Shown here piece after piece: positions 2,135 to 3,094 of a stretch of 6,518 nucleotides of DNA. Origin of the DNA: a virus (taxonomy: Duplodnaviria > Heunggongvirae > Uroviricota > Caudoviricetes); the IMG/VR virus record IMGVR_UViG_2695420514_000014, positions 1 to 6,518 of that record. One strand, given 5' to 3'. The first letter of the stretch is position 1; every line of letters starts with the position of its first letter. A program made the position numbers and the translations under genes. Under the pieces are notes generated by a model, which saw only the letters and a program-made list of their open reading frames with translations, was not told the DNA's origin and did not search any database.

Positions 2135-3094
2135 TTAAAAAAAGAAGGTGATTGCTCCATTTATAAATGAATAGTCATCCCCTGTCTTGAATTCTGATGT
2201 TACTTTATTAAATGCTAGTGTGAAGGCTACAGGTGCATACCCAATTGTTGCGCCAACTTGATATTCATCAACAGTTTTGTTTAGCGATACTGTTGTTTGT
2301 TTCGTCTGTATTGTTTTTCCTTCGAGAGTATAGTTGCGATTGACATCTCGTCTTTCCATACCTGCAAAAATCTTGTATTTGAATCCGCTTGTATCGGACA
2401 TATGCATTAAACCACGGGGAGCCAGCAGACCAAAGCCATTATCCGAATTGAAGGTTTTATCATTACCAATGGCAATGGTTGCGCCATATGCTACATATTG
2501 AAATAAGTTTCCAGTAACAGCAGAAACTTCAGGGTATAATCCAACATTAGCACCTAAAATATCCATACTTGGTGTCATGGATAGCATCCCTTTTACAGTA
2601 TAACCGTAGCGATTCTCTATTTGATCATCCCATGCATGATATTTTTCTGCCCCAATAATCTCATGAGCTTTATTTTGTACTTTCTGACCGCCTGCGTCGG
2701 GGCCAACAACACCTATGTCAGTACCTAATCGATAGCGAATCCAGTCATTCGCAAGGGAGTTCCATTCAATACCAGTGTGAGTGTATGCACTAAAAGCTCT
2801 GTCTCCAGTTACAGCTGTGTTGTGTCTTTTATTACTGCCTGATGGAGAGTAAATATCTTGCGCAATATGGAGAGATAATTGGCTCGAGTCTGAGATATCG
2901 TGGCTATATCCCAGAAATAAGCCTTGTGAGTAATCATCTCTGTTTTCATGTTTATTGCCATAAATATCATTAAGTATTGGTTGAAACTTCCCTGCATCAT
3001 CATTTGCTAATGATAATGCAAGGCTGTTCGCGATAGCTGAACACGTGGTAAATGACAGAGCAATAAAGACGCCAGCGATGACACTTTTTTTCAT
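2135..3094 (-). CDS. lpxR: Outer-membrane lipid A 3'-O-deacylase LpxR-like beta-barrel, 319 aa precursor
   Basis: Track ORF 2135..3094 on the minus strand. It has an N-terminal Sec signal peptide (MKKSVIAGVFIALSFTTCSAIA, AXA cleavage before NSLALSLANDD). The mature protein has Asn9-Asp10, which matches the LpxR active-site pair as I recall it. The C-terminal residue is Phe and the protein is rich in alternating aromatic/Gly beta-strand patterns typical of OM barrels. Precursor length matches Salmonella LpxR as I recall it (319 aa). RBS AGGAAG sits 8 nt upstream of the ATG. The region is low-GC. LpxR is known to be prophage-encoded in EHEC. Confidence 0.75.
   Translation of the reverse strand: MKKSVIAGVFIALSFTTCSAIANSLALSLANDDAGKFQPILNDIYGNKHENRDDYSQGLFLGYSHDISDSSQLSLHIAQDIYSPSGSNKRHNTAVTGDRAFSAYTHTGIEWNSLANDWIRYRLGTDIGVVGPDAGGQKVQNKAHEIIGAEKYHAWDDQIENRYGYTVKGMLSMTPSMDILGANVGLYPEVSAVTGNLFQYVAYGATIAIGNDKTFNSDNGFGLLAPRGLMHMSDTSGFKYKIFAGMERRDVNRNYTLEGKTIQTKQTTVSLNKTVDEYQVGATIGYAPVAFTLAFNKVTSEFKTGDDYSFINGAITFFF

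Follow-up and report, generated by a model that had tools for sequence, protein, structure and literature searches.

The open reading frame at positions 2135 to 3094 on the minus strand of the window, by which we mean the whole 6,518-nucleotide stretch of phage DNA analyzed here, is on sequence grounds a genuine member of the LpxR family of lipid A 3'-O-deacylases with intact catalytic residues. The gene is real, already known, well characterized and ordinary; its exact allele has been annotated before and is widespread in EHEC and EPEC. Lipid A 3'-O-deacylation by LpxR is an established mechanism of immune evasion, and the importance of the present case lies mostly in correct annotation. A modest addition made here is the anatomy of the locus, namely a 1425-bp cassette with both of its junctions, a mosaic crossover within ylcG and a Yersinia-like pocket in the enzyme.

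Translation of lpxR gives an ATG-started precursor of 319 aa, with a signal peptide in residues 1-22 and a mature protein of 297 aa. The N-terminus, MKKSVIAGVFIALSFTTCSAIA followed by NS across the cleavage point, displays a KK pair, a hydrophobic core and an A-x-A motif, which is the layout of a Sec signal as read directly from the sequence. Residue 1 of the mature chain of 3FID, the structure of Salmonella Typhimurium LpxR, aligns to precursor residue 23, and this alignment is the basis of the mature numbering used below. The mature protein contains N9-D10 and its C-terminal end reads ITFFF, an aromatic beta-signal. An earlier note on this DNA had predicted LpxR from a 319-aa signal-peptide protein with mature Asn9-Asp10 and a C-terminal Phe, and every one of these details is borne out by the ORF list and the 3FID numbering.

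The earlier note had proposed a PF09982 search and an alignment to Salmonella LpxR as checks of its identification, and both returned the expected match. PF09982 is matched over its full length with 137.4 bits (E 6.8e-40; curated cut-off 26 bits), residues 10-318 of the ORF aligning to profile positions 2-320 of 323. In a search of all PDB sequences, 3FID was the sole match (E 3.6e-153), with query residues 24-319 aligned to chain residues 2-296, 220/296 identities (74.3%) and a single one-residue gap. Together these two E values rule out chance as the explanation of the match to LpxR. The active-site residues listed in PMC6863877 (N9, D10, T/S34, Q118, H122 and E128), which form the catalytic and Ca2+ site, are all kept, including the His (H122) and Thr/Ser (here S34) positions that the earlier note had singled out; in precursor numbering they are N31, D32, S56, Q140, H144 and E150. 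D11 and Y130 are kept as well, and the basic pair K67/R68, which has a role in binding the Kdo that the substrate needs (PMC6260217), is present. In the Yersinia enzyme, the substitutions N9A, D10A, S34A, H122A and Q118A each abolish deacylation (PMC3486919). We consider it extremely improbable that the protein belongs to some other outer-membrane barrel family such as PagL, OmpX/Ail, PagP or OmpW and merely resembles LpxR. A reading of the PagL or OmpX type is refuted by the Pfam and PDB results, since at E<=0.01 Pfam gives no family besides PF09982 and the only PDB match extends at 74% identity across the mature chain, with the catalytic residues retained throughout. RefSeq and the annotators of phage 434 both name the protein LpxR.

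From 74% identity over the whole 3FID chain, the protein would be expected to fold as a 12-stranded beta-barrel with its active site between the barrel wall and the L3 helix. The EHEC protein (MC001) has been modelled by homology to 3FID, and the three resulting models differ from one another by a C-alpha rmsd below 0.5 A (PMC6863877). No NCBIfam model matches the LpxR protein, a silence that is uninformative because RefSeq still calls the protein an LpxR family member. In PHROGs the protein is matched with 764 bits by phrog_2309, a 319-position profile labelled "unknown function"; this label is behind the literature and could be replaced by lipid A 3'-O-deacylase.

The protein is identical at 320 of 320 positions, stop included, to UMO75405.1 of phage 434, annotated as "outer membrane beta-barrel lipid A deacylase LpxR", and to WP_000750155.1 of E. 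coli O157:H7, annotated as "lipid A deacylase LpxR family protein". The earlier note had stated that prophage-borne lpxR is known in EHEC, and this identity makes that claim an understatement. At the DNA level, 620 of 5426 complete E. coli genomes carry the 960-bp gene at 99% identity or more; EDL933 is among them, as are many O157:H7, O55:H7, O111 and O80 strains. Among 50,697 phage records, LpxR is encoded only by the two records of phage 434 (OL657226 and OL657227). Work on EHEC O157:H7 Sakai (Ogawa et al. 2018), as it is described in PMC6393859 and PMC6863877, attributes to lpxR the 3'-O-deacylation of lipid A and a lowering of phagocytosis and TLR4-dependent signalling, and reports that activation of the gene needs Pch and Ler. 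EHEC lpxR was also placed in the LEE/Ler modulon by transcriptome decomposition (PMC9263587). Of 224 EHEC genomes, 97% had the gene, and its product has been put forward as the vaccine antigen "MC001" (PMC6863877).

A scan of the genome contigs with the LpxR protein gave one Citrobacter locus only, at 73% identity, where similarity is confined to the coding sequence and nothing is common in the flanks. In the 622 E. coli genomes that had an lpxR match, two of the matching places are on plasmids. The E. coli plasmid pJNE23-001_1 (NZ_AP045065.1, 101 kb) carries a diverged lpxR of 83% nucleotide identity (positions 5001-5960 of the extracted locus), surrounded by IS and transposase debris and with an M91 family zinc metallopeptidase nearby. 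The presence of lpxR on an E. coli plasmid indicates that the gene also travels on plasmids.

The biochemically and structurally defined prototype of the family is Salmonella Typhimurium LpxR (STM1328), which shares with the window protein its 74.3% identity over the mature chain, length class, catalytic residues and C-terminal FFF. The two proteins differ in pocket residues, G31/T34/A35 in Salmonella versus D31/S34/Q35 in the window. The lpxR gene of Salmonella is chromosomal and not a prophage gene. Under laboratory conditions the Salmonella enzyme stays largely latent in the membrane, and the presence of the gene is therefore no proof that lipid A is modified. By comparison of published residues, the pocket of the window protein is instead that of Yersinia enterocolitica LpxR (YE3039), which has the same D31/S34/Q35/G36 (PMC3486919). 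All the YE3039 residues tested by mutagenesis (N9, D10, S34, Q118, H122, Q57, P62, F79, Y130 and W133) are found in the window LpxR. The Yersinia gene differs in being regulated, as reported, by temperature, RovA and PhoPQ and not by Pch/Ler. In Yersinia, D31 sterically excludes lipid A modified with aminoarabinose, and D31G relieves latency (PMC3486919); by analogy, the same D31 gating is predicted for the window LpxR.

We are highly confident that this LpxR is a Ca2+-dependent outer-membrane hydrolase acting on the lysogen's own Kdo2-lipid A and carried by the phage as a moron, its activity being taken over from the EHEC literature. The family, the catalytic residues, the identity with lpxR of EHEC and of phage 434, the cassette boundaries and the presence/absence polymorphism were established in our analysis; enzymatic activity, Pch/Ler control and TLR4 dampening are taken from published work on the EHEC protein, which is identical or nearly so. 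The precursor would be exported by Sec and cleaved after AIA22, and Bam would insert the 12-stranded barrel by means of the C-terminal FFF signal so that the active site faces the outer leaflet. There, N9, D10 and S34 would hold the Ca2+ that polarizes the scissile 3'-ester carbonyl, and H122, positioned by Q118 and E128, would activate the attacking water in a manner like that of phospholipase A2, with K67 and R68 binding the Kdo sugars; the Ca2+/H122 mechanism is summarized in PMC6260217. Removal of the 3'-acyloxyacyl group, which has two acyl chains, should leave tetra-acylated lipid A, a weaker agonist of TLR4/MD-2, and the lysogen would thereby provoke less inflammation and phagocytosis. 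The AT-rich 1.4-kb cassette would have been inserted in reversed orientation between ninI and ylcG-Q, truncating a lambda-type Q, and lpxR would be expressed in the repressed prophage from its own upstream region and not from pR. Since lpxR runs antisense to the pR operon and is flanked by DNA of its own, it can be expressed while the prophage is repressed, the property that defines a moron.

A different possibility is that LpxR is latent or catalytically irrelevant in its host, and that the benefit comes from the barrel itself through envelope signalling or goes to the phage, for instance through altered LPS packing, vesiculation or superinfection exclusion, and not from immune evasion. Findings in Yersinia lend this idea some substance: its LpxR is latent at 21 C, and the N9A and S34A variants, although catalytically dead, still complement the regulatory phenotypes of a strain mutated in lpxR (PMC3486919). 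The window protein has the D31/S34/Q35 pocket that blocks aminoarabinose-modified lipid A in Yersinia, and carriage of the same gene by the temperate laboratory phage 434 extends its occurrence beyond the prophages of pathogens. However, every catalytic residue is kept and the DNA is conserved at 99% identity or more across the 620 genomes, and the identical or near-identical EHEC product is reported, as later papers describe that work, to deacylate lipid A and to lower TLR4-dependent responses. PADLOC matched no defence model to LpxR. On balance, we regard a purely non-catalytic role as very unlikely and favor deacylation of the lysogen's lipid A.

In the window, lpxR lies on the strand opposite to its plus-strand neighbors, which follow in the order ninX-ninF-ninG-ninI-ylcG-Q-S-R, the last two being holin and endolysin. 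It occupies a cassette at 1991..3415 (1425 bp, 35.4% GC) that is absent from lambda and from sister prophages of the RusA-YlcG-Q type. The GC content is 39.4% in the lpxR coding sequence and 27% in both flanks, as compared to 46.6% in the nin genes and 50.9% in the lysis genes. The earlier note had already recognized low GC and opposite orientation, and both hold. The left neighbor of lpxR is a gene for a NinI-type Ser/Thr phosphatase (1258..1923, plus strand; PF00149, NF008516) with 96% nucleotide identity to lambda ninI. Homology to lambda continues through ninF, ninG and ninI and ends at window position 1990, 71 nt into lambda Q. What is left of this gene is a 29-codon ORF on the plus strand (1920..2009), whose first 20 residues are identical to lambda Q before it diverges and stops, and which overlaps the ninI stop by ATGA as lambda Q does. 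Phage 434 and O157:H7 carry this fossil too, annotated in the former as "antiterminator-like protein, N-terminal fragment" and in the latter as an incomplete antitermination protein. It is a relic of the recombination through which lpxR, ylcG and another type of Q were acquired.

At the right junction, five prophages without lpxR align to the window from position 3416, 14 nt before ylcG, with 96-99% identity. In these sister prophages rusA abuts ylcG directly, and the ylcG-Q-S-R module is common to them and the window; two of the five reside in E. albertii chromosomes (PMC10673567). The cassette is thus a presence/absence element with discrete junctions, missing from lambda and from five prophages that have ylcG-Q-S-R. 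This polymorphism and the atypical composition support its interpretation as a lysogenic-conversion moron, which fits the sequence data; the moron-like character that the earlier note had derived from strand and composition is confirmed, with presence/absence against related prophages added. The lambda morons bor and lom are similar in that they are genes for outer-membrane proteins of atypical GC lying in a late or early operon, are expressed from the repressed prophage and affect host-pathogen interaction. They differ in protein family and in location, bor being found just after Rz in lambda, whereas lpxR lies in the ninI-Q interval antisense to the pR transcript.

The earlier note had placed lpxR between the nin phosphatase and Q, which is right but incomplete, since it missed both the Q remnant at 1920-2009 and a small ylcG-family gene at 3430..3570 on the plus strand between lpxR and Q. 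The latter matches PHROG 2705 and carries a PF26818 Phage_YlcG call in a 16.5-kb contig of assembly GCA_032536305.1 to which the window is 100% identical. The note's further statement that lpxR replaces ninH did not hold. In lambda, NinG (42429-43043) is followed by NinH (43040-43246), NinI (43224-43889) and Q (43886-44509), so ninH lies between ninG and ninI. In the window, ninH is absent and ninG and ninI overlap directly (ATGA), and lpxR is found downstream of ninI at the body of the truncated lambda-type Q; replacement of ninH by lpxR is ruled out.

The window is a mosaic of two known backgrounds. Over its left arm (1-3557) it agrees at about 98% identity with the O157/O55 prophage and with phage 434, and over its right arm (3416-6518) at 96-99% identity with prophages of the E. 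albertii strains RM10705 and RM9974. The right arm was not found at 80% coverage or more in any of the 5426 complete E. coli genomes. The two arms overlap at 3416-3557, which puts the exchange point within ylcG, and the annotation of 434B also puts a crossover in ylcG. The O157:H7/O55:H7 prophage has LpxR protein and lpxR DNA that are 100% identical to those in the window and the same left context of ninF-ninG-ninI, Q remnant, lpxR, AT-rich spacer and ylcG, at 98% over window positions 515-3557. After ylcG codon ~40, however, it continues with a 229-aa Q, an STnc100/PasD-like sRNA and a class II holin with RrrD, whereas the window has a 127-aa PF06530 Q, a DUF2441 gene and a lambda-type S/R module as in the E. 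albertii prophages. Phage 434 (CPT_434B_65) has a 100% identical protein and shares the Q fossil, the cassette, ylcG and the Q type, at 95.6% over window positions 515-4014, and differs in having nmpC/IS5 after Q and lacking ninX. The example of 434 shows that a viable temperate phage can carry the cassette.

Recombination of an O157/434 cassette onto a Q-lysis module of the E. albertii type suggests that ylcG is a hotspot for cassette movement. Conversion by this phage may also be conditional: it may stay silent as long as PmrA drives L-Ara4N modification and become active only once that modification is off and Ler is on. Taken jointly, the proposal that the Yersinia-type pocket renders the enzyme inactive on 4'-aminoarabinose-modified lipid A and so makes conversion conditional, and that ylcG is a hotspot moving the cassette between lambdoid backbones and species, is tentative, and we judge it somewhat unlikely to be correct in full. 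Neither pocket gating nor a ylcG hotspot, if true, alters the identity of the gene.

A PasD/STnc100-like sRNA has been reported to be linked to lpxR (bioRxiv 10.64898/2026.05.13.724894). In the prophage of E. coli O157:H7 493/89, we observed a sub-threshold STnc100-like RNA (37.7 bits, E 3e-5) between Q and the holin, at positions 6550-6755 of the extracted locus; this is probably the PasD sRNA of the 2026 preprint. A PasD-like sRNA inside the lpxR cassette was rejected, as in the O157 locus it sits in the Q-holin interval. This interval is not common to the window, and the PasD-like sRNA is therefore absent from it.

Candidate signals for expression of lpxR lie within the cassette. Downstream of the gene, 47 nt past its stop, is a 15-bp hairpin (2052..2088), a candidate lpxR terminator. 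The minus strand folds at -20.3 kcal/mol (z = -5.2). For the plus strand, in which the hairpin is followed by the U-rich tract UUUAUGUUUUUGUU, the values are -16.4 kcal/mol and z = -2.85. The hairpin was not listed by a scan for consensus terminators. It is a probable lpxR terminator on the minus strand, and it is possibly also a rightward, N-suppressible terminator ahead of Q. Upstream of lpxR, the region 3095..3415 (minus strand, 321 bp, 27% GC) has a GGAAG ribosome-binding site 10 nt before the ATG, and it presumably holds the gene's own promoter and regulator-binding DNA. A promoter scan of the minus strand gave no consensus sigma-70 site upstream of lpxR; a weaker candidate, TTGTAT-16-TAAAAT at about 3155-3128, was recognized by eye. 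The 27% GC of this spacer is of the kind expected of H-NS-silenced, Ler-activated DNA, and the EHEC gene is Pch/Ler-dependent as far as PMC6393859 and PMC9263587 relate it. Regulation of the window lpxR may differ if its host is without Pch/Ler.

Rightward of ylcG, the functional late antiterminator Q is on the plus strand at 3604..4038 (PF06530, 181 bits) and is called as a 127-aa protein in the identical GCA_032536305.1 contig; the working Q is probably this 127-aa form from the ATG at 3655. The endolysin of the lysis module (5972-6448, plus strand) is of the lambda R type, with a match to phrog_90 and 90% nucleotide identity to lambda R. It had no Pfam or NCBIfam match at E<=0.01, which is a gap in these libraries and not a peculiarity of the gene. 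Across the window, Rfam (E<=0.1) and ARAGORN revealed no RNA genes.

Further observations concern the DNA between Q and the lysis genes. On the plus strand at 4103-4510 lies what is, in three E. albertii relatives, an intact 135-aa ORF with an N-terminal signal peptide (MFNKTIVLTLLTCLFCSSVADA...), without a match in Pfam, PHROG or PADLOC. The window lacks one A of the A-run at ~4283-4289 (A6 versus A7), so that the ORF falls into two frames there. It could have become a pseudogene, the run could be phase-variable, or the sequence could be in error. The Q-holin interval at 4626-5390 contains two further cargo genes, both of unknown function: a 69-aa ORF on the plus strand (4626-4835; phrog_11414) and a 179-aa DUF2441 protein on the minus strand (4851-5390; PF10386, phrog_5663). 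PADLOC assigned no defence model to the cargo genes between Q and S. In Stx phages, the Q-holin interval is the slot occupied by stx.
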